DNA of 64,000 nucleotides from Lingula anatina. Taxonomy: Eukaryota > Animalia > Brachiopoda. Position numbers and translations under genes: made by a program. Shown here piece after piece: positions 326-39,737 of this stretch (position 1 is the stretch's first letter; each line of letters starts with the position of its first letter). The notes under the pieces were generated by a model that was not told the origin of the DNA, did not search any database, and saw only the letters and a list, made by a program, of their open reading frames with translations. Location of the stretch: contig CM120644.1 in assembly GCA_051362555.1 (NCBI GenBank), forward strand, positions 9,556,954-9,620,953, in the 5' to 3' direction.

Positions 326-718
326 TCTGTTACATAAGCAACACAGTAGGCCTACAGTAACCAACACTGCAACGAACACAGCAACAGAGCAGGTAAAGCC
401 ATTCATCGCAGTACATATACCTTTGGTACCGGCAGTTGTGGGCATGGTCGCGGTAGAAGTAACCGTTCTCTGGGAGGCGATACCCATGTTGTTGTTGTTG
501 TTGGCCATGTCCGGCTTGTTTATGCTGGAAATTGGCGCAGATCTTGAAGCAGTTGGGGCGGGCTCAGTGGCGTTGCCGCTGCTAGGTCTCTGGGAGACCG
601 ATCCATTTCCAGTAGAGAACACTGAGATACTCGTGTAATTGGTATAAGAGGAAGGGACGTGAGGTGTTAAAACTATCAGTATGGCGGAAACAGTGCACAA
701 AACAACGCATGTATCCAT
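326..718 (-). CDS. First coding exon of a tandem paralog of the 20988-7024 gene (signal peptide, Ser/Thr/Asn-rich stalk, TM helix); continues off the left edge
   Basis: Acceptor ttctttcag-type AG at 734-733; ATG at 718; MDTCVVLCTVSAILIVLTP..GNGSVSQRPSSGNATE..NNNNMG aligns with MDMCGVLCSITAILVVITP..GNGSVSQKHSSGNITE..NNNNIG; TM VAVFVAVLVTVGLLCCLC; consensus phase-0 donor AGA|GTAAGT at 326/325. Confidence 0.8.
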
Positions 719-2974: not shown

Positions 2975-3920
2975 CAGGCCTAACCAACTACCAGACTCGG
3001 CACCTACGGATCCAGAATAAACCGGTTTATCAGACCACACTACCCGTTTTCAAGGTGTGTGTCAGATCGCATTGCAGAGTATCATACCCCATCACAAATT
3101 TTGTAAGCCTACCTGTCATCCGGGTATCGCGCCTCGTTTTCATCAAGTAGGAGTCGTATAAATACAACAACATGGCGACAGACGACTCCCTCAGTCAGGG
3201 GGTGGAAACGCGCTACTTACATGATGAAGACGAGCCTAGCCGTCAGTGCCGGTTATTGTTTTGTGACCTTGAGGAGCAATTAGGTTTGGTCGTTGCGGCA
3301 CGCATGAACAGTAGTTGAACTACCACACCTGGGTCTTTTGATTTTGACAACTGTTCACTCGTCATCGAGGCGCTTGTTCAAGACTACAGGCTGATATCTA
3401 CTAGTACTACCAGTGGCTTCATTAGTAACGTTCCCACAATACTTAGTTTTTTGTCTGTGCGTACATACCCTGAAAAAGGCCAGCCTCGCTGACGAGAACA
3501 ATGGACGTTTCTCACCCCTCTCTAGGATTACCCCTGCCCTCATTCTCGTCCATCCCGTACTCAGAATATGCTTCCGCTATCAAAATTAGTTCTACTTTTC
3601 TAAATTAATATATAAGTTTGCAAGTTCTTATTTACAAAACATCATTGGTCCGAACCTAAATTTTATGTTAAAAATTGCGGTATTGTCAGATTTTAGCATA
3701 AACAGGGAAAATTGCAGCAGCGCATGAATCTAGATGAGATGCACTACTTTCCAACCCCGCTTAGGATCATTGCTATCACATCGCGCTCCAGGCAAAATCG
3801 GTGTGGTGGCTGATACTCTGTAATGCGATCTGACACACACCTTGAAAACGGGTAGTGTGGTCTGATAAACCGGTTTATTCTGGATCCGTAGGTGCCGAGT
3901 CTGGTAGTTGCGTAGGCCTG
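2975..3920. mobile_element. Non-autonomous TIR DNA transposon (CAGGCC termini), long copy
   Basis: ~110-bp near-perfect TIRs caggccta..ccagactcggcacctacggatccagaat / reverse complement ending gtaggcctg; flanked by GGGTA on both sides. Confidence 0.85.
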
Positions 3921-5819: not shown

Positions 5820-6235
5820 TTTTGCCTTTTATTTTCATTTGCGCCAACCATTTGCGCCAACTTTTTGCTCCTATAGCTGTTGTGATTTCTCATATTTTTC
5901 ATAAGCCTTTTATTTTCATTTGCGCCAACTTTTTGCTCCTATAGCTGTTGTGTTTTCTCATATTTTTCATAATTAATCCTGGTTACATTTCATTAACTTA
6001 CTTTATTATTTTTATATTTAGCACTTATATAGTTTGGGGGATGTTTATTATCTCCCCAGTTCTGTAACAAAGGCCTTTTATTTTCATTTGCGCCAACTTT
6101 TTGCTCCTATAGCTGTTGTGATTTCTCATATTTTTCATAATTAATCCTGGTTACATTTCATTAACTTACTTTATTATTTTTATATTTAGCACTTATATAG
6201 TTTGGGGGATGTTTATTATCTCCCCAGTTTTGTAA
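5820..6235. repeat. Local tandem duplications (~80-bp and ~168-bp units)
   Basis: gccttttattttcatttgcgccaactttttgctcctatagctgttgtg recurs at ~5823, 5905, 6072; downstream block taatcctggttacatt..ctccccagtt duplicated. Confidence 0.85.
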
Positions 6236-7023: not shown

Positions 7024-7189
7024 TTATGCTGGAAAGAATTCCTTTAGTGATCCCCTAACCGTCCAGTCATCAGAAGACGACCGGGTGTCTCTCACAGTTT
7101 TGTAAACCTCAAGGAACAGCTCGTCAAAAGGCAGCTTCGCGGTGAAGTATGTCATGGGATTACCCACAGCGGCTTGTGTGGCGGGCGGT
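7024..7189 (-). CDS. Exon 10: KEN C-terminus and stop
   Basis: tctctag|A CCG; PPATQAAVGNPMTYFTAKLPFDELFLEVYKTVRD..LKEFFPA* vs RNase L [20 protein letters not shown]. Confidence 0.88.
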
Positions 7190-10100
7190 CTAGAGAAAAT
7201 ATCCATGTTTTCTTTAAAAGACATATTTACAAAGATACGGCATAACAATTGGACATTTCCTGGACTAAAAAGACAAATGGACAAAAGGGTAATTATATTG
7301 AAACATGCAGTTCTCATTTTTGTAGATTTACATTTTAAAATCTGGTCTGGATATTTGAATAAAACTTAATCTTTTAAGAAAAAAAGCTAGTAAAATTTTA
7401 TTTGATAAATATTTTCTGAATTAGATATTATTATGCTGCAAGTCATATCGAATTCTGTCTCTTCAATAACTCTGATATGTTACTATAAACATATTAGTTG
7501 GATTAATCGTGCTTCTACCCAAACTTTGAACATAAAGTTATTCCCCTAAGATGTCCGTTATGCTGAGCTAAAACCACCTCCTTCATAAATTTCCCAAACA
7601 TGTTTGAGTATATTTAGTGCTAAACACTGAAAGTGATGTTAATATTTGCAAAAATAAGAATATATCATTCTTACTGATCTTTGAGATGGACGTCCACATT
7701 TCGAAGGAATCGAAGAAGTCCGCATATGGTAGACCTGTAGCCATTTCTGATTGGTTTTGCAATTTTGTCATACACAGCTTGATCGAGCAAGTCCTTCTGT
7801 AAAACATTAATTGATAAAACTTGGTATATTTATCTTTGTTAGTACAATACACAAATGGTGCGATAGATTTCCCATTGGCCTTTGTATTGTGATGGTAAAA
7901 TAATCAATCGTTTTGGAATTGACGAAACGTGATGCGTCATAAAAAAACTATTTATTTGCTTTACATCATTATTGACGACTAACTAATTTTTGTTTCACAG
8001 CTTAGATATACACCTAACGCAGCATTACAGACGGTTGACGTCACACTGAAATTGTTCTTTATAAAATTATTTCATTGAAATAAAATGCTATATAAAAATT
8101 GTGGAAAATGAGATGACTCTTCTTTTGACGGGGACACTTTTCCATGTCTGCACGTCCACGTTACTGGGTAACAGCAATGAGGGATGGGCATCAAAATTTC
8201 AACATGGCGCCAATCTTGTGAGAACGTTTTCGCTTAGAATATTTTGAGAGATTTTTGTTACCCAGCATCTTAAACGTGCAGTTGTGCATCCAGACTCTTG
8301 TACAATGCTGTGGGAATTCCCTTAACGAAAATACATTAAATTGGGATATCACGTGGCGCATGGCTTCGGTGTAGACGTACCTCAGATCTGCTCTGCAATT
8401 TTTATATCTTTGGCTTATCTTTTTGGACGTTGGTCGCGGTGAAAAGGACACTAGTGTGAGTGTGAACTACAAGTGCCAAATGCAGTAGTATCGAAGTAGC
8501 AAAAAAAGCATTAACGCAGTAGTGGTGTGGAGTGGTTTCAGAAAAAAAAAACCAAAAGGACATTTGAGGATTTTCTGTTCAAATCGACCTTCTGTTTGTT
8601 AGGTAAGGCCAAGTGAGTACTCCTCATCTACCTATAATTACGCTAAACAAAAGTAGCCATGGCCAGTAAGTGCGTCACGAGTGATGGTCAAGACGAACAA
8701 AAGACCATGGATGTTGACACACAAAGAAAACTGGTGCAACTAAATATTGACTCTATTACTTCTGTGACAAAACCATCTGATGAAACTGGATGAAAACCAC
8801 CCTAAAAGAGGAAAAGAACCAACAGTGTGGAGTCGACAGAGAACCCAACTGCAGATGAACTCCATACAATACAGAATACATTGGCAGAAATCAAAAATGA
8901 GATGATACGTAAATCTGACGTTATGTCACAGCTTAAGCTCGAAATAAAACAGAAACTAAAAGATGGATTTAAGAAAGAGTTGGAGCAAGATCTCAGGGCC
9001 ATCTGATCTCAGGGCCATCAGATCTCTGAAACTGAAAAAGTTGACGCACTTTGCCTAGAGACAGAATCAATGCGTGAAGAACTAACTAAACAGGCCTCTG
9101 AAATCAGAAAGTAAACCGAGAAGCTGGAGGAAAATAGCCGCCAGACAAGAGCCGCCATACATATGGCGAATCATAATCAGCAATACTCACAAAAGAACAA
9201 TATAAAATTTCTAAACTGGACAGAAGGAAAACCTGAGAGCTGACCTCTGCAAAATTTTCAAGGAGAAGGTCAATGTAGATATTAACCCATCATCAATTTT
9301 AGCTATTCTTCGGATCCCAAGCACTGCCTGCGAACCCCGGCCCGTTATTGCGAAATTTGTGAATACGGAATCGAACATAGCTGTCATCAAACACAGGCAA
9401 GCTCTAAAAAAACATTTCCTTATGTACGATCACATTACTCGCTGTAATGCAGAGCTAATTAGATCACTAAAAGAGAGAGAGAGTCTGTGCATTCCGCATG
9501 GTATTTCTACGGAAGGGTTTTTGCAGTGGATATCAAAGGGCGCCGACAGAGATTCGACCAGTTCGATAACATTGACAACAAGCTGAGATGACAATTTAAC
9601 GTGTTAGCTTAACAAAGAGCAGGGACTGTAGCGTGAACTGTATGTAGTTAGTTTCTCAACGATAGTTAATACGTGTACATGTGCATGTTGTTTCTCAATG
9701 CATTGGTGTGGTAGTCTTTTGGCAGTGAGTGTGTGGTTGAGTGTGTGGATGTTGATAATTAGCTGGTTGGTTATGCAATGCCACAATGTATTCCCTCATA
9801 GTGTAATTTTAAGCGTCTTTACACATGGGTCACATTATGCTAGACCCTGGTATATCACTGTAGAATGTAGTTTTATATTTCTATTTATATTACCAACATA
9901 TGTATTTATACACTTCTCTTCACTTTTAGAGCCGTATGAAGGACATGATAAACCCGATAAAGATAGTCTCCTGTAATTGCCAAGGCCTGGGCACCCCGGA
10001 GAAAAGAAGAGATATCTAATTTTTTTATAGAACTAAAAATTACCATATTCTGTGTTTGCAACACACACATTTAAGCACAGAAGATGAGAAACGAGTAGTT

Positions 10101-13100
10101 TTAGAATGGGGCTACAAGGGTTACTTTAACTCATTTTCTACAAATGCCCGTGGGGTGGCCTTTCTAATATAGATAACTTCGATTTTGAATTTTTTAAAGA
10201 ACAAAAAAACAAAAAAAAAAAAAAAAAAAAAAAAACAAAAAACAAATGGTGACAGTCTCTTAGCGTTGGTATAAACAAAGTCCGATTTACTTTAATTAAC
10301 ATATATGGTCCTTATATAGACAGCCCAGATTTCTACGAACAAATAAGAAACTATTGTCGATTTTAATAATGAAAACTTTATCACCTGTGGAGATTTTAAT
10401 CTCGTTAGACCCGGTGCTAGATTCAAGTAATTACCGTCATGTAAATAACCCCAGAGCAAGGAAAAAAGTAACTGAAATAATGAATGATCCAAAGAAATTT
10501 CATATTTATTGGTAGCAAAATAGACAGAAATCTAAAACATCAGACAGAAGAAACTAAAAGGTATCCTTTTGCGAGCAAACGCAAGGTGGGTGGAAGAAGG
10601 TGAGAAGCCGACAAAATACTTCTGTTTTCTAGAATCTAGACATTACATGAACAAAACACTACAAAATCTAGAACTGCAAGACGGCACTGTTATTTTTGAC
10701 CAAAAGGAAATAATGAAGCTAAATTATTTTATGAACACCTGTATTCCTCAAAAACATTTTGTACAAAATACTGATCTAAGAGCCCTTCTTGTCCAATTTA
10801 ATGTGCCCAAATTAAATGATACCGAAGAAGAACTGTAACAGGTAGAAATCTCCAAGACAGAACTTCTTACAGTCCTAAAGAAAATGAAGAATAACAAGTC
10901 TCCGGGCTCCGACGGATTTACAAATGAGTATTACAATTTTTTTGGTCAGACTTGAAAGAATTTATGATCAGAACGGTAAATGAAGTATTTCGTAAAGCAA
11001 GGTTACCAACTAGCCAGGAACTCGGCATTATTACTTGTATCCCGAAAGGGGACAAGAATAGAACATTTCTACAAAATTGGCGACCTAAAACATTGTGAAA
11101 TGTATTTTATAAACTAATATCCGGATGTATAGCTGAACGAATGAAAATTGTATTAGACAAACTAATTTCCCCTTCTCAATCTGGGTTTTTAGCTGGCCGC
11201 TATATAGGAGAAAACACAAGGTTGATATATGACCTAATGCACATCACAGACAAACGAAATATTCCAAGTTTGCATGTTTTGATTGATTTGGAAAAGGCTT
11301 TCGATTCGGTTGACTGGGATTTTATAATTTTAATTAAATTTTAATTTTTAATTTTAATTAAAATGTACCGGACTTATTTTATTTCGGTGACGCAATTAAA
11401 AAATGGTTTGGGATATTAAATTTTGATTGCAGCGCCGCCATTAGTCAGTGACCCCCTCTCCCTGTACATTTTTATTTTATGCTTATAAATACAACACAGA
11501 ACGATGTTCTTGAAATCACCTTTCACCCATTTTTGCCACAAGCAATAGAGTTTCTTATCAAACATAGTAAAGGCTGTAGATACTTTTATCAAACTCTCTA
11601 CAAGCCAGCTACACGGATGACAAACGAAAAAAATGGAACGGAAAGTCAAATTTTTATGTACATTAAAAAGATGTCTTTAAGAACTGTTTCGAAGAACACC
11701 AAACTGCAGTGGTTCCAATACCGCATAATACATAGGTTCCTGCCTATTAAATCACATTTAAAAATATAGGGCTTGAGAAGGATGATGTCTGTTCTCTCTG
11801 TGGCGTTGCCAGAGAAGACATTTCGCATACTTTTTCCACTGCGAGTACAGTAAGAAAATTTGGGAAGAAGTGAAAGCTAACATCTTTAACAGAACGAATA
11901 AAAACATTACCTTTGATGAAAAATGCATCCTTTTCGACTCTCAAACAAACCCAAACAGCCCAATTAATTTTGTTATTCTTTGTACGAAATTTTATATTTA
12001 CAAACGTTTCAAAAAGAAAGAATGTATGCGTCTTTCTTCACTCATAAGTTACATTAAGGATCAATTTATAATAGAAAGATTCAATGCATTAAAAAAGCTA
12101 AATTTAACAAACTGAAAAAAATGGGAAAATTGGTCAGACATGTTTGATTTTAATTAGTATCCATCTGTTTCAGCAAAATTATATATTGCACTTTTTCTTG
12201 TTTAATAATCTATTGTATATTTGGTTGAATACATTGTGGTATCGATCTTTATTATCATTATTATTTTCACACCTGTTGTTCATGAGATTATAAACGTATA
12301 TTCGTGTGTGTGTGTGAGAGCGTGTGTGTGTGTAAGAAAGAGAGTGAGTGTGCAAATAAATATGTACATTCCTGTACTGAAATTTTTCAATAAAAAAAAA
12401 GATTTTGAGATTCATGTACAATAGTCAGGATGCTTATAAAAATAATTTAATTTGACGAAATACAGGGTATATTGAATTTGACGATAACATTTGATCATAA
12501 TGCTCACTACGGTTTGGAAGAATCTTGGAAAAAAACTTGGGAATTTCACAGTACTGAGCTCATGGGACATGTGCCATTCTGATCAGTTTGTGGCAGGCAA
12601 TTATATTGGGTCGCCTAATCGACTTTCTCCCTCTCCTCTCCCTCCCTCCCAACCCTCCTGACAACCTGCAGTCGTCTTAATATAACATGCACATCAGCAA
12701 CTCCCTGATGATCGATATCAGTTATTATATTGCCGTACACATACAGTTACACTGATAATGAACAGAAATTACGTACCCAGTGTGCTACTGTGTTAAACAC
12801 GGATACCGTCAACCCATCCAGTGTCGACGTTAAGGAATGGGACTGTTGTTTCCAACTGAAATAAATTCATTGGATTAACATGAATCTTATACAAAACAAA
12901 CATCTTAATATCTTAATAAATAGAATTACTGCAATACTAAACACAACATATTATTTAACTGCTCGTATTAAGTACCGTTGGTATTGTACTTTCAATATTA
13001 TTCTTCAGCTTTTCTACCTGTTCTAAAAAATGACTATGCTGAGGACTATAACAATATAGAGCAATCTTTTAAGTTACAGACAAAGTATAAGTTCTAGGGG

Positions 13101-16100
13101 TGGGCAAATGACAAAATTTTTTTAAAACAGGTGGATTCTATGGCCATTTTTGCTGCTGAACACAAATATGACAATATTTTTTACCAAAGCTAAAGATTTA
13201 TATCGGTATCTGCTATTTGTTTGTGAAAAAAGGCGGGAAATGGCTTTTTGGCCATATTTTCCCAGTAAAGTACATAAAAATGATGTGTAATATGTATTTC
13301 TATATGTTTTGAGGGTTGCTGAGTTCAAATATGAGCATATTCAAGACATTGGCAATATTGTTAGGGTGACATCTGTAAAAATATGTTATTTAAAACAAAC
13401 ATATACATAAAATACACACTTCGAGCCTAAGATAAATATAAATAATGGGCATTATGTACATACTGAATTCATGGATTACAGTTTGGTATAAAAACAATGC
13501 TGAAAATACCTTTATGGATGTGTACCAACAAATTTTATGCTGTATAATTTTCCTTTTCTTCAGAACAGCTAAAACTTTGTCAGGTGACATCAACCTCTTA
13601 CAACCTCTAAGCTCTTGACCTTGGAATAGTACTTAGTTTCAGTTGTGTAGTTTAAGAGTATCTCACCACAACCATGAAAGCATCAACAAGAAATACACTG
13701 AGACCAGAAGGCACTGTAAAGCCCCCTGTCACACTTATTTGGAATCTGAAGTAATCAAGCAGAAAGAGCCATAATGAAGAATTTTCAAAATTTGCGCCAC
13801 ATTCGTTGGGTAATATCAAATTGACCTTAATTCCAGCAAGAATACCTCAGAATGCGCTTCGAACCCAACTGGAATGATTCGTGCGCATTTCGGTTGTATT
13901 GTATTAGCTCTCAAATGCAGCTCGAATGTAGTTGGAACACATTAGGAATATCGTTAATGCTAATGCCGTTCACCCTAAATATAGTGAGAATATTTAGAAT
14001 GCACTTCAAATGCCATACAAGTGTGGTTTGATTGTTGGCTGAATCCCAGCCTGCAATCAAGATGCATTCGAGTTGCATTCCTGCTCATTGGAGGCACACT
14101 GTGGAACATTCTGACAAGATTTGAAGCGCCTTGCCATTTCGGTTCTCCCTCGAATGTGATCAAAATGTTTCGAATGCTGTTGGAATTTCGTAAGAATTTT
14201 AAGAATGCGCTCATAGTGCAGTTAGAATACACTTGAATGCCATTCGATATTTTTCCACTTGCAATGCACTTCGAAAGTTTTGAGAATGAGCAAAACATTT
14301 TAACAGGACACAAGAATGGACCCAAACATTTAGAATGCGCTTAGAATTTTAAGATACTTCAAATATCCAGGAACAAACAAGAAATTTTTATTCCGACTAC
14401 ATTCTAACTCATTCCGCCTATAGTGTGACTAGGTTATAAATGAAGACAATAAAGATATTGTCACCGTTCACCCAAAACTCCTTATTTACTGCCTTACATA
14501 CATTCTTTTCGGTGATAAATAAATTTTCAGTGTTCAGTGATTACATTAATTAACATTTACACATGTCATCTTACGTGGATGGTATAATTGCAGTTTGGGG
14601 GTAAAAACTGAAAAATCGGTTTCTCAAATGTCTGTTTTACCTGAACACCCATGATCACTATTTCAAAGCGAATTTAATGACACCATTTAGTACCCCAAAA
14701 CCCTGCCAGCGATTTTTTTAAAGCCTTAGTTCAGATCTGATCGTTGATAAAGCAAAATAATACCATTGTTTTTAGAAGATTGGTCATTACGGACTAATGA
14801 CTCCATAACAAAAGCAATTAAATCATAACGTTGGCATGGAATAGTAGCTCATGCCCTTGTGGTCCATTGGCCAATCCTTGTGATAAAATCTTGTTCAGGG
14901 ATGAAGTTATGCCCCATGTGCATTGCTAACTAATCTCAAAAAAGAAAGCTGTTAAATAGATGATTAAAGCTTTGCGTTGCTTATGCTTATACATTGCAAC
15001 GAAAAAATATAAACGCCATTATTTCATATTTTCAAGAGTTTTTGCATTGTTTCAAAGCAGCACAAAGACAGATACATTATTGAATAATTAGATGCAGAAA
15101 AAAACTCATTTTCGGTATCTGGATGGTAATAAAGAGTAACAATATCCTTAATGCTCTGCTACTGAGTGTTCTACTGTAAATATTCCCATATGTAACTAAC
15201 ATTATGCTATTCTTTATGTCAAAACTTTTCAGTTTCATGTGATCCTTGAACAATACTGACCATATTTGTTGTATTATTGTTTTTCCTAATTTAAAATCCA
15301 CAGTTGCATATAAACATTTGTATTTATGTACACAGAAATGGTGATTTTGGGGTGATTTTTACCTCAAATTGACCAAAAAATCCTCTTTTTAACCCAAAAT
15401 GAAGTGACCCAACCAAAATGATGTATCTATTTATGCTCATTGATCATGAAATCGTATGGTTAGACATATAAAAAGCCATGTTTGAACTGATATTTAAAGA
15501 TTTACATGAGAAATATGTGATTTGAGGGAGCGTTTGGTGGCCATTTTGAAAAATCACCTGATACCAATATCAGATGTAATTTAAAATGAAAATACTTATT
15601 AGATTTGTATTCAGCAGCCAAAATGGCCATAGAATCCACTTGTCTGAAATTAAATTTCCCAAAAAAGCTTTCATTTGCCCACCCCTAGATAACACAAAGT
15701 TTCAGTGAAAGTCAAATATACTGAACAAAAATATAAACGCACTAAACTAAAATGGTCAGTTGAAATGGATAACCATGAAATATGCCCAGGTTGATGGATT
15801 ATTTGTGAACTGATGGATTTGTTTTGATCAATTATAGTGGTCTGGTCTCACTTGGCCGCTCCCCGTGAGTATCCTCAAAGGTTCAGTTTTTACACCCATA
15901 AAACTAATGGAGCATGACGGAGTAGAGATCAATCTGCAAGACCAATACACAGACACTCTCTACCGTACCGGCAATAAAAGGACACACCAAAATGTGTATT
16001 TCTGCCACTTGTCAACATGCCACAGATGTCTGGAACCATGAGGGAGCATGCCATCAGCATGCTCAATACAGGCTTGTCAGTAACAGAAGTTGCAGCATGC

Positions 16101-19100
16101 CTGAATGTGCATCGTTCCACTGTCAGCCGTCTGGGAACACGCTTCAGAGACACTGCATTGCATTAGGAACCACCCTTATGCACCATGTTGCCCAACAAAC
16201 ACCTGTGGAATGTTCTGGATCAGAGTTTTCAGCCATCATGTTCCAGCTCTCGAGAATGTTCGCCAACTGCGAGTAGCAGAAGGAATGGGATAATATCCCT
16301 TAGGCCTCTATTGACAACTTAGTGATGTCCATGCGCCGCTGGTGTACTGCTCTGCACAAATTTAATGGTGTCTGTAAACTCAGGATGTTGACCCCCATGG
16401 TGTATTTGATGCCCTAACTCTTGGACTATGCATTTAAACTTCCCCTAATGCTCTCAAAGTGATGTCGATTTGTCGAGAAAAATATGCTGTTAATTTTGGC
16501 TATATACTCTAGTTCCATATATGAAAATAAATCTACATATTCTTTCGTGCGTTTATATTTTGTTCAGTATATTAATAGCAATGCAAGCTGACATGAAGGA
16601 CGTAATATTTATCTTACAAGTACATGTACACGGAACAAAATACTGATGGTGATGCATTTTCGCATTTTGTTACCGCTATTTCTTTAATTTTACTTCTAAA
16701 AATGACTAGTCTCCCAATGTTTTGAGTGTTACCTTTCTTTCACTTCCTTCTCGTCCCCCAGCACACAAAGTAAACGAAATCTCGTATCCACATTCCAAAG
16801 GAACGGGTGCCTGTTAACAAAAGGTGTACACATACTAATTGAACATATGTCATTTAACATATAAATGAATAATTTACCAAACAACATTTCTTAAAGATTT
16901 CAATGTGTTGCAAATTTCTATTTTAAAACGGAAGGTAAATAAAACACAAATATAACTTACGCCAGTGCCTCATCAATGGTCGGTCTCAGCTCGGGGTCTG
17001 GCTGCAGCATCCAGTCCAATAAATGTCTCCCGACGATGTCGTCCAAGGCTGAGAGGTCATGTTTTCCCTCTTGAACGTTCTTGTTACACAGAAACACGTC
17101 GTCCTCACCATTGGGCATAAATGGATGTTTGCCACCTGTTAGTGTGTAGTAGACTAACATCCCAGCCACCTGCAAGGGAAACAGAACAATAAACAGTTTA
17201 ATGAATTAAATTTTGAGACATGTACCTAGTTTTTTCGTAATGCAAAGTTCCTCAATAGCTACAGAAAGCTCCTTTCCGTGGGCGTAATTGTCAAAATCAA
17301 ATTAATCATGCTTCATGGTTGTTAACTAATCTACTTCAATAATACATATATATATATATTATATCATCCTAATTATATTTTTTTAATCTAATGTATCCTG
17401 TAATTTTTTTTGTTCTATTTTTTTTTTACCTGGATATCCGCATTTTTCTTGTATTTCACTTGTCTTTTGGAGCTATCCAATATCTCTTTTGCTACCCAGT
17501 GGTATGTTCCTCAATATACAACAAAGATATCTCAACCATGATTGGACAGTTGCGAATAAAAATAGATATTCAAACTTGGTATTTTAAAGACCTTAAAGTA
17601 ACTGTAAATTGGCAATGAGTAATATAGTGGTGGGCTTCCATTCATTTTTCTTCTACAGTCAAATATCTCCTGCATGACTCGGAATTTAAGATCACTGCAC
17701 TTTACCCAAAACATCTTCCAAGATAGGCGGGCAAACAGAGACAGAGAAACACAAAGTGACAAAAACATTATACCTTTAGCAGTAGTGTAGAAAGTGCTCT
17801 GGTCATCCGGGAGGACCACACTTATACCAAAGTCAGATAACTTTGCCCGGCAGTTGACATCTATAAGAACGTTAAGGGGCTGAAGTGACAAAGTACGTAA
17901 AGAAACTTTAGTCTCTTAGTCTGTTGTGTATTTTTCAGTTTTTATCCAATCTCTACTAGGATGAAACATTTGACATTAAAATTCATTTGCAACTAAGAAA
18001 AATGCCTCAATTAGTATTTCAAGAATAATCTGTGTTAAAGCCCAATAAATAGCTGTCAACTGAAAAGGTACTTACCTTGATATCCATGTGGATAACGTTA
18101 TGTCCGGTGTGTAAGGTTCTAAGGCTCTCCAAGATTTGCCCTACGAGATCTCGGGAGATTTTAGTCTGGTTTTGTTTGTACTCGTCTGTAGATATGAATT
18201 CATTGAGGGTAAACTCCCCAAGCTCAAGAACCAGGTACAGGAACTCGTCGTCCATGGCAATATCATAGTATCGGATAATATTTGGGGAATCCAATGTAGT
18301 TAACACGCCTTTCTCGTTCTTGAAGTTTTGTAACATGGACCTTGGGAATCTTTTCACGGCAACCTCTCTGCCATCATGCCGAATACCCAGAAACACTTCA
18401 GTTTTGTTCCCTCTGAATAGAATACACATAATAACTGATTTGAGGAAACTTTAACAAGTGTAACTAGTAGTGAAGACCCCTGTCCCGGTCAATGCATTCA
18501 ATGAAAAAATATTCGGTACAAACTAGATCGTTAATTGTCATTTATATGTCATTATAGAAATACAATAATGGAACACACACCTTAATCTACAACATCAAAA
18601 TAAGATATTATTACTATAGCACACAACACAGCCCAACCATTTCCAAACCAAAATATATATCATTCCAATTTCTTGTAATAACAACCATCAAACCGCATTA
18701 GGAGTATAACTGTTTTGAAGGGCACCATAATTAAATTGAAAATTAAGTTAATATTGAATAAATGCAGCACACTTCACTGTATACTTACGATCCAATCTTA
18801 AACTTGTCGATCTTTGTGCTGAAACATACGTTATTCACCTCTTTCAAGTTCCCGTCGTTAACCTGCAAAAGTTTGTCAAACAAAGACTTCCATCTGACAC
18901 TGACAGATGTCCTGTTTGCCGAATATTTTATGGCAATCTGTTCCTTCAGATAGATTGGACTACTGGACGGTACTATATAATCACAGAGCAGTCCGTCGCT
19001 GGCTAAATCGTTTCCACCAATTTGTAAGATCTGGTGTGCAACAGGTATGCCTTCTTCTGCCTCAATTTTACTTTTCAGAAACGCCACGTTGTTATTTGGT

Positions 19101-20988
19101 GAAACTTGATAGTCTCTCCAAGTATTGTTAGGCAGCAGTATTGGTACTTTCCATGGTTGCTTGGTAAGAATGATGTCCATTTCATCTTCCATTTTGGAGG
19201 TCAAACATTCGGCCAACATCTTCTCGTCACTAAGAACATTGCCATTAAAACTAAGGTGCTGTTCAAGCCGGTGAATACCTGTGTTACCCGCCAGCATCTG
19301 TTTTACTTCGCCGAGGTCTCTGCTTGCCAACAGAGTGTATTTATAGTTTTGTGCGCCATGTGCTATGGAAACTGTTACTGACCAGTCAACAGTCACAACT
19401 GACCCTTCTTGGAGACCATACTCCTTCAAACATTTGTCGCTCCCGAGTTGTGTCCCTGCGTAAATGAAAATAACTGTTCCCAGAAAGTTCTTTGACAGAG
19501 CATTCACTGTGTCCGTTGGGGATACTCTGACCGACATTTGGGTGTTCTGTCCTATTATCTTTAACACGACTTGGAATGAAATAGACACCTTCACCTTACG
19601 TAGACAAAAGAGTGGTGCCTTTTTATCGCACTCGCTCAATTCTTGAAGTGTATGTCTTCCTACCCACTGGACGACTATAAGGGATTTATCCTTACATGTA
19701 CGTATTGCTTTTGGTTTAAGATCAATCATATTAAAAAAATCTCCGACGGTAAGAAAGGGATCCCAAGATTGTTCTTCAAGGCTGTCATCGGCAAATTGAA
19801 CAAGAACTCTATGTGAGGAATAGGTGACCGTAAACTCTACTAGTGGGTCTGTTCCAAAGTTAATGTCATAATCCCAGAAGGTTTTGTCTTCGTCAAGATT
19901 ATATGATTCGCCCGGCATAAGACCTTGACATACATTTACGTAAGAAAGGGGTAGATTTACAAGTTCAATGACTCTGTTCTTTATAACTCGAACCTTATCC
20001 GTGCGTTTAAGGGGCATGCGCAGACTCTGTCCGTCTGGCAGATGAACAGGTATAAAATGAAAATCTTCTAACAGGTTAGTATTGAGTAATACAGGCTCTG
20101 ATATGCATACGCACCTCTGAAAGGAAAATATATTCAGTATCACATGCATGATATGCTTTAGTAGATGAATACAATTGGTCCAGATTGAAGAAAAGTATTA
20201 GAATATTTACTACACTTTATATTTCTTTCTTTGGATAGTTCTTTCTTAATCTGTATTGTTTAACTTGTCTATTTTCTCATTTTACTTATTACTTATTCAC
20301 TACGTGATGATCAATATGATATGATCGTTGCACTTTTTGGTATCATTTAAATATCGTTACGTTTCCCTCACAACAGTAGTTCATGTAAGCATTTGGAAGA
20401 AGCATATATATTTAACGTTAACCGGTTACAATGACTGCGGGTACAGACGATACTGTATAGAAAAAAGCAATAAACAGAAATAAAAAATACCGAGAAACAA
20501 TTTTGGCAACAATCAGAAAACCAATCTTTACATCCCCCTTGACATAACTCGCAGTCGTCGTAGTCCTTGCAACAACGACACAGACTGCAATAATAATCAA
20601 TTTCCAGGCGGCCGCGTAACGAAATCCATAAACTTATCAGGAAACACAACCCAAATGGAATGCTACTCAGGGAAGCGGTTATGACGACAACTTCGATTAT
20701 TGTGAGCGGGGTCCCGGTAGAAGAAACCGTGGCTTGGGTGGCGTTGCCAATATTGTTGTTGTTGGTCGTGTCTGATTGGTATTTGTTGGATATTGGCGAG
20801 GTTTCCGCGACAGTAGGCGTGGTCTCAGTGATGTTGCCGCTGCTATGTTTTTGAGAGACCGATCCATTTCCGATAGTGGGCGTTGTTGCTGTCCCATTTC
20901 TCGGGTAATTGATATCAGATGCTGTGACTTGGGGTGTTATAACTACCAAAATAGCGGTTATACTGCACAACACGCCACACATATCCAT
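7024..20988 (-). CDS. Membrane-anchored, multi-ubiquitin-like, IRE1/RNase L-family kinase-ribonuclease (KEN); 10 coding exons, ~1000 aa
   Basis: Exons 20988-20491, 20116-18789, 18412-18076, 17879-17774, 17509-17430, 17169-16961, 16810-16733, 12855-12777, 7796-7675, 7189-7024; all GT-AG, phases 0,2,0,1,0,2,2,0,2; total 3003 nt with no internal stop. Kinase motifs VAVK, HMDIKPLN, DFG; KEN motif LLRFLRNVDVH. Exon-1 donor is uncertain. Confidence 0.8.
7675..7796 (-). CDS. Exon 9: KEN catalytic segment
   Basis: KDLLDQAVYDKIAKPIRNGYRSTICGLLRFLRNVDVHLKD vs RNase L YQNTVGDLLKFIRNLGEHI; tttacag|AAG, CA|GTAAGA. Confidence 0.9.
8520..12400 (+). mobile_element. Degenerate L1/Tx1-clade LINE in intron 8, antisense to the host gene
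   Basis: Coiled-coil ORF1 remnant ~8659-9590; endonuclease start IKIVSCNCQGLG at ~9955; RWVEEGEKPTKYF, KSPGSDG, QSGFLAGRYIGEN, IDLEKAFDSVDW, LQWFQYRIIHR; A-rich tail ~12389-12400; many frameshifts; 5' end approximate. Confidence 0.9.
12777..12855 (-). CDS. Exon 8: KEN domain
   Basis: tttcag|T TGG..; (S)WKQQSHSLTSTLDGLTVSVFNTVAHW; TGG|GTACGT; phases 2->0 bridge exons 7 and 9 and supply the conserved KEN Trp. Confidence 0.75.
13095..15687. mobile_element. Non-autonomous TIR DNA transposon (TAGGGGTGGGC termini; superfamily unresolved, hAT-like end)
   Basis: ctaggggtgggcaaatga / tcatttgcccacccctag; subterminal inverted ggattctatggccattttgctgctgaa; CTAG or TA at both junctions. Confidence 0.8.
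13720..14435. mobile_element. Harbinger-like MITE rich in GAATG/CATTC, nested in the 13095-15687 element
   Basis: Loose TIRs agccccctgtcacact / agtgtgactaggtt; related copy at ~27746-28385. Confidence 0.6.
15719..16569 (+). mobile_element. Internally deleted Tc1/mariner
   Basis: TIRs tactgaacaaaaatataaacgca / tgcgtttatatttt(t)gttcagta with TA TSD; N-terminal HTH MPQMSGTMREHAISMLNTGLSVTEVAACLNVHRSTVSRL from 16017; HLWNVLDQ and SMRRWCTA remnants; DDE core missing. Confidence 0.88.
16733..16810 (-). CDS. Exon 7: kinase end and KEN start
   Basis: HPFLWNVDTRFRLLCVLGDEKEVKE (cf. HPFFW in IRE1 and RNase L); taacag|G, AG|GTAACA. Confidence 0.88.
16961..17169 (-). CDS. Exon 6: kinase C-lobe
   Basis: VAGMLVYYTLTGGKHPF..LLDWMLQPDPELRPTIDEAL, matching the IRE1/RNase L-type YY.L..G.HPF motif; ttgcag|GTG, GC|GTAAGT. 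Confidence 0.92.
17430..17509 (-). CDS. Exon 5: kinase subdomains VIII-IX (absent from the ORF track)
   Basis: (G)TYHWVAKEILDSSKRQVKYKKNADIQ; ttgag|GA phase 1, CAG|GTAAAA phase 0. Confidence 0.88.
17774..17879 (-). CDS. Exon 4: kinase PLN..DFG/activation segment
   Basis: PLNVLIDVNCRAKLSDFGISVVLPDDQSTFYTTAKG; cttcag|CCC, G|GTATAA. Confidence 0.92.
18076..18412 (-). CDS. Exon 3: kinase N-lobe to catalytic loop
   Basis: (IGS)GNKTEVFLGIRHDGREVAVKRF..KNE..IIRYYD..LYLVLELGEFTL..VIHMDIK; ttcag|A acceptor, AAG|GTAAGT donor. Confidence 0.92.
18789..20116 (-). CDS. Exon 2: about five tandem ubiquitin-like domains plus pre-kinase helix
   Basis: Acceptor tcctttcag|AGG; VSPNNNVAFLKSKIEAEEGIPVAHQILQIGGNDLASDGLLCDY and VSPTDTV..FIYAGTQLGSDKCLKEYGLQEGSVV resemble ubiquitin [51 protein letters not shown]; donor TC|GTAAGT. 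Confidence 0.88.
20491..20988 (-). CDS. Exon 1: signal peptide, N-glycosylated S/T-rich stalk, TM helix, Cys-rich juxtamembrane segment
   Basis: Acceptor attttcag at 21004-21003; ATG 20988; sequons NGT, NGS, NIT, NAT; hydrophobic IIEVVVITASLSSIPFGLCFLISLWISL; CSLCRCCKDYDDCELCQGGCKDWFSDCCQNC; candidate phase-0 donor TCG|GTATTT. Confidence 0.65.
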
Positions 20989-22639
20989 TGATTTAGATTA
21001 ATCTGAAAATAAGAAAACATATTGCACCAGTAAATATCGTCCGTGTGACAAAATCCAACAAGTTTGTCCTGTGCAAATCAAATGTACATCGTTTTAGTTT
21101 AAAGCAGTTAAATATCGTATAAACAGACCTACAAAATTTGATATTGTCACTGTATAATTCAAGTCCACTATTCATAATTGAATTCCAATATTTCACCCTT
21201 TTATGTTTGAGGCACAATATCGAAGTGCAAATAATTACTATATAAAAACACTACAAATACTTGACTATGACATTGAAAAACGCTGAGTTCAAATGAGCGT
21301 AATTATCACGACAGTTATCACGCTGCTTAACTCTTATAAATGTGTATGACATTTGAATGATTTAATTTCACCCCACTATTTAGAAATGACCTTTCTGATC
21401 CCTTACCCATCACTTTCGTTGTGCCTCAACCCAGCAGGGATAATGTCGTTGGATCAACGTTGAAAACAGGTTGGGACGTTGCATCGCCGTTGATCTACCT
21501 ATATTCAACGTCAAATCAATGTTGATCCAGCCACAGCAAAACGCCGTCATAATGTGACGTTGACTCAACGTTGTATTTTGGTCGTTGACTCAACATTGTT
21601 GTTAGGTCGTCGTGATGCAAGATATGGATCGTAATTTAAGATATTAATTATTGAAAACGTGATACTATGTTTATCAATACTGTAACGAACTTTATCAAAA
21701 TATTAAAATCGGTGCTTTTAAGTAAAAGTAACAGTTGTTTTGTGTCTTTAGTGAACTAGTGAATTTTCTTAACTTGTTATTTAGAAATACATTCCAATAA
21801 ACTTCCTCGCAAGGTCAGCTAACACAAGGATGAATATGTAGCTGTTTGTGTGATGGAGTGGTGTTGACGCTGTTGACAGTTCATAGTACCCTGCTATAGA
21901 TAGATAGACAGGTTGAGGTGACCGTGACTTTCTTATTAACCTTGGAAATCCTAACTTATAGGCCATACATATACACTTTACATATATTTAGCCATCAAAC
22001 GCGTCCTAGTACTGCTAAACACAACCAGTCTTAAAGCATGTAACATGCTTAGGAGCAAAACGTGCTTAGAAGCTAAATGCGTTAAACAAGGCAGCAAAGC
22101 TGTCAAATGTACAGACAAAAAACAGGAAAAAAAGATGCAAAATAGGTCAATTTGTCAATTTTGATGCAATAATAAATGATGCTTATAATAGCACAGTCTG
22201 TCAACAGTGATTTTTAATCATGCACAACAGGTAACATGGTCAATAACAGGAGCAGATCCAGAGATATTTTCTGACAGTATTGCAAAGTATTTATGTTGAT
22301 CCATCCTCCATTTTGATGGTCTTCCAACAGAAAAAAATAGATACCAGTCACTATAAACTTAATAACCTGACTGTTTTCTGGAAGACCCAGGAGATGGTCT
22401 CAATCCACCCCTTCAATAAGATTACAGTTTCAGGACCATGAGAGACCAAAGTCACATGATGAAAGTATCAATATTTGAAAAATGATGACAGTGCATAAAA
22501 TAATATAACATAATGTTTAAAGACATAAAAAACAATACAACTGCTTATGTGGAAATACAGAAAATGAGCAGAGCCTCAGGTGGATGGAAGTTATAAGTCA
22601 CAAATGCCAGTGTTTGAGAAAAAAATTAACAAGGCAGCA

Positions 22640-23012: not shown

Positions 23013-23639
23013 AAAACTTATTTGCAATATTAAAATTTACCTGCATAATTATCACTGCTTCCTTATTATTAATCTAGCAGAGAGCTTTACCTTTGGGAGT
23101 TTACAGGGAAATATCAACAAGTGTGCTTTATGTAATCTCATTTAATGGCCTATCAATTAGGCAAATTATTTTATAACACTGAAATTAGCTAAGTGATACC
23201 CAAGGGAATTTTACAGACTAACCCTCTCAAAGGTCTTTCAGGCCCATAAGTCAAAACTTAAGAAAAGCACATAACAATAATGCACAAAATAGGAGACTAC
23301 CAATTCTGATGCAATAGTACATTATGTTTAACTGCACAGTCAACATTAAATTTTAATTTTGCACAACAGGTAACACCGATGCAAGTAAAAGCATAAGGCT
23401 TCAGGCCCATCAGAGTTCAAGTTTATGCTTAGAAAGTGCCAGAATGAGAAAAATGAAAAATTCACACAAAATTGCATAAAATTCAATAATAAATGATAAC
23501 CCAATTGACCTGGCTTTCTAATTTGAACTACATGCCAATCCTAAAAATCATACTTATAAGTTAAAAATTATAATAAACACAGTTTTCTTTTCATAATGTT
23601 TGCAGTAGCAGTGCGAAAAGATTATTGTCAATTGTGCTG

Positions 23640-24810
23640 TAACATTACATAATAAATTATAGAATAATTATCACCAATTTTTGATTATTGACTATAAATA
23701 GCATGGACATGTAGAAAATTTGATTACCATACGGCTTCATGTCCATGGGAGCTCCGAGTCCCACAATGAATATACCAAAAAGATAATGAATATTTCACTA
23801 AAATGTATAACTTCCGGAAAAAGAAGCCAATTAGACTGCTTTTCTAACTCGGGCTGCATTTTAGTCATGTGTTTCTTTTTTGAAAGTTTGACAATCATAA
23901 GTTTGACAATCATAAGTAACACGGTTTTCCAATAATGGTCATCATGGCAGCAGCACCAAAAATTGTGTTTTCTTCTATTTTGATGCAACATTACATAATG
24001 CTTAACAGCATAAAGACCATCAATTTTTAATAATAAAATATACGTGTCATGGATTTTCAGAAAATGTGACTAGTATGGGTCTTCAAGCCCGTGGAGGTTC
24101 TAAGTTGCACCTTGAAATTGCCAATAAGTGAAAAATTAAATTTTCACAAAAAAAAACGGTTAAATTGCCAGAAAAATTTACCAAACAGACTGCATTGCCT
24201 ACTAAAGCTGTATGTTAGACCCATGTTTCTTTCCTGTAAGTTTGAGAACAGCAAGCGACATGATTTCCCTTAAATGGTCATCATAGGAGCAGTGCCCTAA
24301 ATAGGGGTTTATTCAAATTTTGATGTAACGTTACATAATGTTTAACAGCATAATAACCATCAAATGTTATTAATAAAATATTAGTAACATGGAAATTCAG
24401 AAAACGTGACAAGCAAAGGTCTTCAGGATCATGGAACTTCAAAGTCACACCTTGAAAATGCCAACATGTGAAAAATTAAATTTTCACAAAAAACGGTTTA
24501 ACTGCCAGAAAAAATTACCAAACAGACTGCATTGCCTACTGAAGTTATATTTTAGTCCCATGTTTCTTTCCTGTAAGTTTGAGAACAGTAAGTGACATGA
24601 TTTTCCTTAAATGGTCATCATGGGAGCAGTGCCCAAAATAGGGGTTTCTTCAAATTTTGATGCAATATTACATAATGTTTAACAGCATAATGACCATCAA
24701 TTTTTAATTATAAAATATTAGTATCACGGATATTCAGAAAATGTGACTAGCAAAGGTCTTCAGGCCCATGGAACTTCAAAGTCACATCTTGAAAATGCCA
24801 AAATGTAAAC
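23640..24810. repeat. ~340-bp tandem repeat
   Basis: ttacataatg(c/t)ttaacagcata at 23991, 24331, 24668; diverged copy ~23647. Confidence 0.85.
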
Positions 24811-25199
24811 AAGACAGCACTGTTCTGAAATGGGTTTATTTCCACTTTTAACACTTTTTAACATAAAACAAACATTTTACTGCCATTTTTATATGACCAA
24901 CTAAGAAAATCGATGAGATGGGAAAAGTATCAATAGAACAGTGTTAAATGTCCAATTTCCTCCATTCTGAGATTCTGAACATAGTGGATGATTGAATCTG
25001 ACAAACTGCAATGATGTGAGTTTATTTCCATTTTTGACACTTTATTACACAATACATGATAACAAGTTTACCATGTTTTTTACATAATCAACTAACAATG
25101 TTGTAAAGATGCAGGAAATATCAAACAAACACTTTTACGCATCTTATTAGTTCAATAATGAGACTGTTAACATGCCTAATAATTGAATCTGAGGAAATG

Positions 25200-37151: not shown

Positions 37152-37506
37152 CACGGTTGATTCCTTCTCTCGCAGCCGAGCCAACAGCAACGTCCCCGCA
37201 TGTTTTCATGAGGCCGTCAGCAAATACCAGGCACAAAAAGGCAGGTGAGTCACGTACGTTGATTCCTGTTAAAGAGCCAACGTCTCCACCGTCGGCGCGC
37301 ACCTCACCGACTTCTTCTCGCTCTGCTTCAACAGCGTTATCGCAACTCAACGATACCACCGACCCCACAGTCATTCAGCCTTTAGACAGCAGCGTTTCCG
37401 ACACTGAGAGCTCCACGCGCGCAGATTCTGCCAGAAATTCACCAATTCCCCCTCGTCCCTCACCGCCTGCCCACGCAATAATAATAAGCCGGCTGATTTG
37501 CACTTG

Positions 37507-38425: not shown

Positions 38426-38499
38426 CGGTTAAAATCACGAAAAAACGAAAAGGCTGTCGGTACACTTTCAAATTCTGTTAAACAAAATTCTATTTTTAT

Positions 38500-39644: not shown

Positions 39645-39682
<38 letters not shown>

Positions 39683-39701
39683 TAATAATAATAATTTCCC
39701 T

Positions 39702-39737
<36 letters not shown>

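Follow-up and report, generated by a model that had tools for sequence, protein, structure and literature searches.

A Lingula anatina gene encoding a predicted membrane-anchored kinase-ribonuclease of a non-IRE1 family, with a ubiquitin-like array

Ubiquitin-like (Ubl) domains are known from innate immunity in OASL, in which an OAS moiety is followed by two such domains and which acts as a synthetase or sensor, not as a nuclease. Proteins that join a kinase to a KEN ribonuclease domain are best known from IRE1/ERN1 (PDB 6w3k, 2rio) and vertebrate RNase L (PDB 4o1p, 4oav). In IRE1, H910 is catalytic (PMC12475274) and E621, R627 and K706 are dimer residues (PMC7736581), whereas the kinase of RNase L is a pseudokinase (PMC4730318). 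According to Chu et al. 2023 (PMC10400998), RNase L is confined to jawed vertebrates and was lost in ray-finned fish; Lingula is listed with OAS but without RNase L (Hu et al. 2018). Chu et al. list ten RNase clades, and their non-RNase-L, non-IRE1 PK-RNase clades C1-C4, D and E, which include teleost ankyrin-kinase-KEN proteins called IRE1-like or ppk4-like, contain the nearest non-Lingula relatives of the protein described below, to which no lettered clade is assigned. A KEN-UBI fusion (gi 125543109) stands in Table 1 of Anantharaman et al. 2013 (PMC3710099) as a table entry only, with no transmembrane segment (TM) or Ubl array described there. Together with the broad metazoan clade reported below, these entries make the pair IRE1 and RNase L, to which an earlier sequence-only reading of this locus had limited its comparison, too narrow a frame of reference.

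The window analyzed here is a stretch of 64,000 nucleotides of the L. anatina genome. Splicing and translation of ten minus-strand exons (from 20988 to 7024) gave a frame of 3003 nt and 1000 aa with a single terminal stop, in which all nine introns are GT-AG and all junctions are in phase, so that the ten-exon, stop-free ORF of about 1000 aa proposed from the letters alone was borne out. The model is colinear end to end with XP_013390329 (LOC106158774), XP_013380124 (LOC106151416) and XP_013379366 (LOC106150894), three uncharacterized L. anatina RefSeq models with the same whole architecture. A tblastn search with XP_013390329 and XP_013379366 recovered all ten exons in the window, exon 8 being placed by this homology:

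Exon 1, 20491..20988, minus strand: aa 1-166; predicted signal peptide, stalk, predicted TM and Cys-rich juxtamembrane segment; colinear with the RefSeq paralogues
Exon 2, 18789..20116, minus strand: aa 167-608; Ubl array, pre-kinase helices and first kinase strands
Exon 3, 18076..18412, minus strand: kinase N-lobe to catalytic loop, with Gly loop, VAVK lysine, alphaC Glu and HMD; Pkinase E 1.2e-16
Exon 4, 17774..17879, minus strand: end of the catalytic loop, DFG and activation segment; Pfam Pkinase
Exon 5, 17430..17509, minus strand: P+1 loop and APE equivalent (AKE); paralogue tblastn
Exon 6, 16961..17169, minus strand: kinase C-lobe; Pfam Pkinase
Exon 7, 16733..16810, minus strand: end of kinase and start of KEN; paralogue tblastn
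Exon 8, 12777..12855, minus strand: KEN, flanked by the transposon-filled introns 7 and 8; tblastn identities of 89% and 78% to two paralogues
Exon 9, 7675..7796, minus strand: KEN catalytic R-N-x3-H (HEPN Rx4H) motif; Ribonuc_2-5A match
Exon 10, 7024..7189, minus strand: KEN C-terminus and stop codon; the acceptor at 7189 is in phase and fits the paralogues without insertion

Two other acceptors for exon 10 were rejected, that at 7211 for being out of frame and that at 7264 for a 25-aa insertion with respect to the paralogues.

The membrane part was predicted from hydropathy alone, with 19-residue means of 2.05 at aa 3-21 and 2.23 at aa 100-118, corresponding to a predicted signal peptide (about aa 1-24) and a predicted TM (about aa 97-124). 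The ectodomain is a stalk of about 70 aa rich in S, T and N with four N-glycosylation sequons, and the juxtamembrane segment carries 12 Cys in 49 residues. The signal peptide, short glycosylated stalk, TM and Cys-rich segment of the sequence-only reading are thus upheld as predictions from hydropathy, sequons and Cys count. No recognized binding domain was detected in the stalk (no Pfam match in exon 1), and the TM/Cys part of a paralogue gave no usable match in the ESM Atlas. IRE1/ERN1 has the same topology, one TM with kinase and KEN on its cytosolic side, which is predicted for the Lingula protein from hydropathy and Pfam.

The kinase and KEN assignments were confirmed by Pfam, with Pkinase matches in exons 3, 4 and 6 and a Ribonuc_2-5A match in exon 9 (E 0.0011; 1e-13 to 1e-15 in full-length paralogues). 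The Lingula kinase retains its catalytic residues (VAVK, alphaC Glu, HxDxKxxN and DFG), and in this keeping of K, E, HxD and DFG it differs from the RNase L pseudokinase. It is non-RD, with HMD in place of HRD, a state that is not specific because HMD was also found in 9 of 147 other representatives. Non-RD pattern-recognition receptor kinases share this trait, but the Lingula ectodomain is only a stalk, and LRRs occur only in a partial relative, LOC106171780, whose model lacks a TM. The His of the KEN Rx4H motif aligns to IRE1 H910, and this motif is invariant in all five close Lingula paralogues examined, whose KEN is 82-87% identical to that of the window. At the positions of the IRE1 dimer residues E621, R627 and K706, the aligned Lingula sequence has D, R and R; Leu stands in place of D620, and the Asp that immediately precedes the KEN "LLR" is replaced by Gly. 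The fold was modelled with AF2 in paralogue P0003, which is 88% identical to the window protein over kinase-KEN; this region reached a pLDDT of about 86-98 and matched IRE1 with Z 38.0 and RNase L with Z 31.5. From this model the KEN would have the HEPN/KEN fold and catalytic motif, making it a putative metal-independent RNase. The pre-kinase helix encoded by exon 2 was, in the paralogue model, aligned only by RNase L (residues 333-355), and this common helix suggests kinship with RNase L, while the pre-kinase segment alone had no meaningful match in the PDB. A homodimer prediction for the paralogue kinase-KEN scored 0.00 and gave no answer.

With IRE1/ERN1, the best structural match of the paralogue model, the Lingula protein shares type I topology, an active-type kinase followed by KEN and part of the back-to-back interface; on the other hand, it lacks the luminal sensor domain (IRE1-type rows in the same search show PQQ/beta-propeller matches), has a Ubl array where IRE1 has a disordered linker, is non-RD and belongs to a separate clade. 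With RNase L it shares the kinase-KEN module, the Rx4H motif and the pre-kinase helix, but it has a membrane anchor and a Ubl array instead of the ankyrin 2-5A sensor, no ankyrin match being obtained in the window exons or in paralogues P0001, P0002 and P0121. The statement that neither sensor is present therefore holds at the level of Pfam. An RNase L-like, antiviral-type output of the Lingula protein is probable.

Phylogenetic analysis placed the Lingula kinase-KEN in a non-IRE1 metazoan clade (24 of 40 rows; UFBoot 99, SH-aLRT 97), recovered in a larger tree (78 of 106 rows; SH-aLRT 99). These trees contained no RNase L row. Union with four IRE1-type rows was rejected (p-AU 4.1e-5), for a group picked after the first tree and defined by rows without taxon look-up. 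On this phylogenetic evidence, the kinase-KEN is not derived from IRE1. The clade includes teleost, Xenia, hemichordate, amphioxus and limpet proteins, and phmmer matches to its members start in the pre-kinase segment. Within the set, the kinase is partnered with CARD, PYRIN, caspase, TPR, ankyrin, GT4-conflict, HEPN_DZIP3 and UEV domains, with DED below the cut-off, in fusions from teleosts, Xenia, a hemichordate, amphioxus, a limpet and a sea cucumber. In several members of the clade Pfam finds no KEN, and a caspase or CARD takes its place. Kaur et al. 2021 interpret GT4 and TPR fusions resembling these as immune-conflict architecture. Among the proteins searched, a Ubl domain together with a clade-type kinase was found only in Lingula, and the scanned non-Lingula members, the closest of which are 36-48% identical, lack the combination of signal peptide, single TM and Ubl.

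Exon 2 matches Pfam ubiquitin in three stretches (E 1.4e-21). Its units were located as follows, with approximate limits:

U1, 20053-19847, minus strand: RBD E 0.009; local HMM 3.4e-6
Segment between U1 and U3, 19813-19580 (aa 268-345), minus strand: detected by neither Pfam nor the local HMM
U3, 19579-19379, minus strand: above the Pfam ubiquitin cut-off
U4, 19378-19157, minus strand: above the Pfam ubiquitin cut-off
U5, 19156-18935, minus strand: slightly below the Pfam ubiquitin cut-off

Of the roughly five Ubl domains first proposed, four were hence detected, and the fifth, at aa 268-345, was not. A search with U1-U2 returned only NEDD8 at E about 1, and exon 2 found only generic Ubl clusters (<0.9) in the ESM Atlas; an AF2 model of exon 2 from a 5-row alignment (pLDDT 37) was not used. 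Neither LRGG nor a terminal di-Gly occurs in the array, where GG appears just once in aa 183-560, inside U5; U5 lacks the Ile44 patch, with Gln at the Ile44 equivalent. In contrast to polyubiquitin and ISG15-type modifiers, the repeats thus have no LRGG ends for processing or conjugation, and without them and the U5 patch the array is a poor ubiquitin mimic; a role as a decoy for viral deubiquitinases was downgraded on the same grounds. Since paralogue P0004 keeps TM, kinase and KEN with the Ubl array deleted, the array is dispensable within the Lingula family.

The N-terminus changes among the close RefSeq paralogues, of which at least five were found; P0003 is annotated without one. The three colinear models are 67-74% identical to the window gene over exon 2 and 89-91% over the kinase, but their TM sequence is strongly divergent (6/31 identical); no protein nearer than 74% over exon 2 was present in the collection searched. 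Alignment with paralogue P0121 gave 233/257 identical residues for the kinase and 122/143 for KEN; the Ubl units range from 54/76 to 55/67, and the TM has 6/31. A tandem copy begins within the window:

Tandem paralogue exon 1, 326..718, minus strand: signal peptide, stalk, TM and phase-0 GTAAGT donor; 75-78% DNA identity in two blocks; protein alignment and tblastn

Its remaining exons would lie beyond the window edge. A divergent Lingula model, the above-mentioned LOC106171780, has a TLR-like LRR array before the same Ubl-kinase cassette (26%, 520 columns, E 3e-43); this model, which lies on a 30-kb contig, has no TM segment and breaks off within the kinase N-lobe, so that it could be a chimera or only part of a gene. 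No description of a TM, Ubl and kinase-KEN protein was found in the literature searched, which took in text of Chu et al. 2023, nor any study or name for the three RefSeq models; three Lingula accessions looked for in 12 of the 13 supplementary files of PMC8195603 did not occur there. The architecture that the sequence-only reading did not recognize is accordingly undescribed in this literature, but it was already in RefSeq as uncharacterized Lingula proteins. The literature examined likewise yielded no RNase activity or immune role for any clade member.

Introns 7 and 8 hold about 7.3 kb of transposon DNA in three insertions:

DNA element with terminal inverted repeats, 13095..15687, unstranded: intron 7
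Tc1/mariner-like remnant with TIRs and a transposase-type HTH, 15717..16571, unstranded: intron 7
Broken LINE-type retrotransposon, approximately 8500..12400, plus strand: intron 8; RVT_1 E 3.4e-8 at 11102-11341; fragmented ORFs

The load of about 7 kb agrees with the first reading, but the purifying selection deduced from it does not follow, because intronic insertions do not test the frame; the gradient of identity to the paralogues is better evidence of selection. The RNA-seq check proposed for the junctions gave no support: in four of nine listed runs (6-30% of each sampled, 95% identity), exon depth was zero except for roughly a single read in X4 and another in X9, and none of the nine introns was matched by a splice joint. 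This null is weak, as the runs were chosen by species label, none shown to contain the stretch, with no positive control.

To the following reading, which builds on the observed gene structure, domain order, retained catalytic residues, paralogue fold and phylogenetic position, we give about even credence: the gene encodes an intact-frame, predicted single-pass membrane protein of a Lingula-expanded non-IRE1 kinase-ribonuclease family, likely serving innate immunity, which would stay latent until clustering and then cut RNA independently of 2-5A. Of the immune or stress role first suggested, the immune type is the likeliest, considering the partner domains, the family expansion, the non-RD kinase and the LRR relative. 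Clustering in the membrane would dimerize the kinase-KEN, leading to RNA cleavage without a 2-5A messenger; by analogy with IRE1 and RNase L biochemistry, RNase activity would require the back-to-back dimer and the kinase would act mainly as its scaffold. The HRD arginine of IRE1 grips pS729, and its loss would allow looser control by the activation-loop phosphate. Judging from the anatomy, the TM and 12-Cys segment, possibly palmitoylated, would set membrane location and clustering, and the Ubl array may be a non-conjugated, variable spacer or docking module that gates dimerization or recruits partners. Clustering might be triggered through the stalk, by a ligand or co-receptor, or through the array, by a cytosolic binding partner.

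The gene marks an overlooked kinase-ribonuclease branch with kept catalytic residues and immune-domain fusions in many animals; the Lingula form has a membrane anchor and Ubl array in addition. Should it be active, RNA destruction would here have a new trigger, receptor clustering, as opposed to 2-5A or ER stress. A wider and decidedly speculative extension, which we regard as unlikely, is that brachiopods possess a class of cell-surface or endosomal receptor-ribonucleases, with interchangeable ectodomains (a stalk, or LRRs in LOC106171780) and a Ubl array leading to an RNase-L-related kinase-KEN, which would turn an extracellular cue into RNA destruction without OAS, second messenger or transcription. 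Such a class would form the membrane arm of a modular kinase-KEN immune family spread across metazoans (CARD, PYRIN, caspase, TPR, GT4 and ankyrin fusions), which would also have given rise to RNase L. If true, this would account for what takes the place of RNase L in OAS-bearing invertebrates and in teleosts devoid of it.

The near absence of exonic reads and joints would also fit a functional family whose copy in the window arose recently by duplication and is seldom or never expressed, as would the weak exon-1 donor (GTATTT), the three intronic insertions and the nearest exon-2 identity of only 74%. We consider this rather unlikely, given that over 3 kb none of the ten exons or nine GT-AG introns is broken despite 9-30% residue differences with respect to the paralogues, that the catalytic part is the most strongly conserved and that the RNA runs may not derive from a matching population. 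The lack of transcripts in the libraries sampled is also compatible with narrow expression of a regulated mRNA-decay enzyme in development, germ line or shell-forming epithelium, but the mostly immune-type partner domains of the clade make such a non-immune role very improbable. An RNase of secretory-pathway stress, or of RIDD-like type, with an IRE1 topology gained by convergence, its TM and stalk sensing bilayer or glycosylation stress and its KEN degrading ER-bound mRNA, would account for the type I topology and for IRE1 giving the top fold and profile scores; it is unlikely in view of the missing luminal beta-propeller and the position outside the IRE1 clade, and tandem expansion with N-terminal swapping would be unusual in a housekeeping stress sensor. 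About as unlikely is a receptor-like kinase whose output is phosphorylation or scaffolding and whose KEN cuts RNA little or not at all: the kinase retains every catalytic residue and is better conserved than any other part, and several clade members lack a KEN match, yet the Rx4H motif and KEN identity noted above in the five Lingula paralogues argue against an idle KEN.

Least probable of all is a split of the model into two genes, exon 1 encoding a small membrane protein by itself and the rest a soluble Ubl-kinase-KEN protein. The exon-1 frame does continue through its weak donor until the stop at 20368, the four RNA runs yielded no junction read, and P0003 lacks an annotated N-terminus. However, the same phase-0 junction (..CFS|RCVC..) is predicted in the three RefSeq models, the TM exon of P0004 joins the "RC" start directly before its Ubl remnant, the exon 1 of the tandem copy also has a phase-0 donor, and intron 1 spans just 374 nt. 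At the other end of exon 1, an acceptor-like AG just before the ATG suggests a 5' UTR exon upstream.

The minus-strand gene spliced into ten exons, separated by nine GT-AG introns with every joint in phase, to give 3003 nt and 1000 aa, which bears out the ten-exon frame of about 1000 residues claimed in the sequence-only reading.

Exons of the kinase-ribonuclease gene
20988-20491, minus strand, exon 1
20116-18789, minus strand, exon 2
18412-18076, minus strand, exon 3
17879-17774, minus strand, exon 4
17509-17430, minus strand, exon 5
17169-16961, minus strand, exon 6
16810-16733, minus strand, exon 7
12855-12777, minus strand, exon 8, set by homology
7796-7675, minus strand, exon 9
7189-7024, minus strand, exon 10, acceptor set by homology

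Pfam assigned ubiquitin to exon 2, Pkinase to exons 3, 4 and 6, and Ribonuc_2-5A to exon 9; the signal peptide and transmembrane (TM) segment are predicted solely by hydropathy, and 12 Cys lie within 49 residues C-terminal of the predicted TM. A kinase-ribonuclease gene with a predicted TM and an array of ubiquitin-like (Ubl) domains is a real feature. Four Ubl units were detected in exon 2, and another segment of the approximately five proposed earlier (aa 268-345) matched nothing in Pfam or PDB and was missed by a local HMM as well; that segment is kept in the paralogues and is colinear with a distant relative. The units lack LRGG and U5 carries Gln at Ile44, indicating that they are integral domains, and these same features ruled them out as modifiers or good ubiquitin decoys.

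Queries with exon 2 recovered two proteins among 5178 longer candidates and one among 4925 of near length, all from Lingula anatina, and a cluster look-up added a third full-length Lingula model. The window's own protein was absent among the exon-2 matches, the closest models being 67-74% identical over exon 2. Databases already contain the architecture, in models that are uncharacterised. The paralogue P0004 has the signal peptide, TM, kinase and KEN ribonuclease domain but just the tail of the last Ubl unit, apparently through an internal deletion. Exon 1 of a tandem paralogue (718-326, minus strand, ~20.3 kb downstream) encodes a signal peptide, stalk, TM and phase-0 donor without the long Cys-rich segment. 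A further Lingula protein, LOC106171780 (P0179, P0269), has both LRR and Ubl arrays together with a hydrophobic N-terminus. Its alignment to the window's model spans 520 columns and extends into the N-lobe of the kinase (26%, E 3e-43). This candidate TLR-like receptor kinase-RNase is treated only as a lead, because its model is truncated and has no TM.

Outside Lingula, a kinase-KEN query gave 299 hits, the best 120 of which comprised four Lingula proteins and 116 others. The latter were 36-48% identical, nearly all of them named as teleost ankyrin-kinase-KEN or kinase-KEN proteins, and none of the 116 matched PF00240. An exhaustive search gave 150 listed representatives of 264 at E up to 1e-30. 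Of these, 147 were new, and a Pfam scan covered 90 of them, excluding 44 short and 13 long sequences. Kinase partners in this scanned set were ankyrin, TPR, CARD, PYRIN, caspase, GT4-conflict, HEPN_DZIP3, UEV and asparaginase, with DED below threshold; pure Ubl arrays accounted for seven hits, and among the 90 the combination of Ubl with this kinase occurred in the Lingula LRR protein alone. The 20 rows with a taxon look-up include Xenia, Glandiceps, Branchiostoma, Patella, Holothuria and teleosts. By a crude hydropathy scan, a few more of the non-IRE1 rows also contain segments resembling a TM (four in one Xenia protein, for instance), and the membrane link is therefore not strictly unique.

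Several other fusions were observed in these searches. Teleost-branch kinases are fused to CARD, to UEV or to PYRIN together with caspase (P0178 from Alosa, P0129 and P0155 from Puntigrus, P0144, P0147). Fish lack RNase L, and these proteins may represent a branch linked to inflammasomes. A soft-coral expansion in Xenia (P0122, P0123, P0125, P0134, P0164, P0170, P0171, P0213) includes tandem kinase-KEN units and fusions with TPR, HEPN_DZIP3 or asparaginase. GT4-conflict glycosyltransferase accompanies the kinase in P0185 (Glandiceps), P0172, P0174, P0180, P0197 and P0208, of which P0185 and P0197 also hit KEN, and P0199 (PYRIN plus kinase-KEN) groups with IRE1-type rows.

In a quick tree of 106 rows (10 teleost rows kept from 116 hits, the other 106 left out), the Lingula clade fell inside a 78-row group apart from IRE1-type rows (SH-aLRT 99); a careful 40-row tree placed it in a 24-row group (99/97) of unresolved inner order, both trees being built without any RNase L sequence. 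Constraining Lingula with four IRE1-type rows, a group picked after the first tree, was rejected (p-AU 4.1e-5). The family profile scored higher against IRE1 (up to 290 bits) than against RNase L (217 bits), its match beginning at position 54 for RNase L and 77-97 for IRE1. Paralogue P0003, as modelled by AF2 (pLDDT averaging 82.7, low over the Ubl part), matched IRE1 from residue 194 (Z 38.0) and RNase L from residue 172, equivalent to RNase L 333 (Z 31.5). The earlier start of the RNase L match in both comparisons thus indicates that the predicted extra pre-kinase helix is shared with RNase L, although the constructs crystallised for IRE1 begin near the kinase.

The kinase retains the Gly loop, VAVK, alphaC Glu, HxDxKxxN and DFG. 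At the HxD x, Met occurs in the window's model and in each of the five close paralogues, and Arg in 119 of 119 matches of the 116 non-Lingula hits (best 120 of 299); HMD also occurs in 9 of 147 representatives. The KEN retains R-N-x3-H, whose His falls, in the alignment of paralogue P0121, on IRE1 H910, described as catalytic (PMC12475274); Rx4H is reported as essential (PMC3710099). Of the IRE1 dimer residues, E621 aligns with D, R627 and K706 each with R, and D620 with L. Identity to P0121 is high in the kinase (233/257) and KEN (122/143), intermediate in the Ubl units (70-82%) and low in the TM (6/31). This gradient fits constraint on the enzyme, but gene conversion could contribute to it.

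Neither IRE1 nor RNase L matches by its own defining features, yet the Lingula protein probably works like both. We give about an even chance to the likeliest reading, a latent membrane-tethered immune RNase, for which structure, motifs, fold and clade were observed, and for which we infer topology, dimerisation, activity, immune role and trigger. On clustering, two kinase-KEN modules would pair back to back in the manner of IRE1 and RNase L (for the latter's pseudokinase and dimer mechanism, see the passages of PMC4730318), and their composite site would cut RNA with no 2-5A needed; the Ubl array would provide a variable module for gating or docking, and membrane location would be tuned by the Cys segment. 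That this gene belongs to receptors with interchangeable ectodomains, wired through the Ubl array to an RNase-L-related kinase-KEN, is doubtful. An ER or bilayer-stress RNase appears unlikely, and a kinase-signalling receptor with a quiet KEN marginally more so. A non-immune role is highly improbable, and a split gene slightly more so.

A silent duplicate is also unlikely, if slightly less so than an ER or bilayer-stress role. Reads from four of nine listed RNA runs, tied to the window by species label alone and mapped at 95% identity without a control gene (6-30% of each run), fell almost solely on repeats. In these runs every exon bin had zero depth except X4 and X9, which drew roughly one read apiece. 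The three listed RNA joints lay at 22084-22367, none at any intron. Given the labelling and the lack of a control gene, this carries modest weight against expression of this copy. At ~22080-22370, a short repeat, probably a common transcribed interspersed element, drew many partially matching reads in all four runs.

The gene represents a new variant in architecture, in a metazoan clade of kinase-KEN proteins that has been little studied. In the portions consulted, Chu et al. 2023 describe ten RNase clades, RNase L confined to jawed vertebrates and independent ankyrin gains outside it, and a term search of the main text found neither 'Lingula' nor 'transmembrane' (PMC10400998). The passages of Hu et al. 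2018 list Lingula as having OAS and lacking RNase L (PMC6307210), those of Anantharaman et al. 2013 report KEN fusions to UBI and BRCT (PMC3710099), and those of Kaur et al. 2021 present GT4, TPR and polyubiquitin fusions as an immune architecture of sessile marine animals, Lingula accessions being absent from them and from 12 of 13 supplements (PMC8195603). The architecture is not described in the sections seen of PMC8528705, PMC8476169, PMC13319465 and PMC12922763, the second of which counts a homologue labelled 'RNase L' among the Nematostella genes that respond to poly(I:C), nor in the wider literature covered, which held few subscription papers; a figure or the SI of Chu et al. could depict it.

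Transposon remains account for ~7.3 kb of introns 7 and 8, close to the ~7 kb noted before, but this is uninformative on the purifying selection then suggested for the frame. ORFs at ~37400-43800 resemble, by their motifs, a Gypsy-type LTR retrotransposon, and are interrupted by an opposite-strand RT-like fragment (~39976-41137). By the ORF listing, a second broken LINE-like element at ~47600-50350 resembles the one in intron 8. Tandem repeats of ~340, 166 and 168 nt and a MITE-like 117-nt inverted-repeat pair occupy 23600-24830, 25187-26179, 5824-6235 and 2975-3920.
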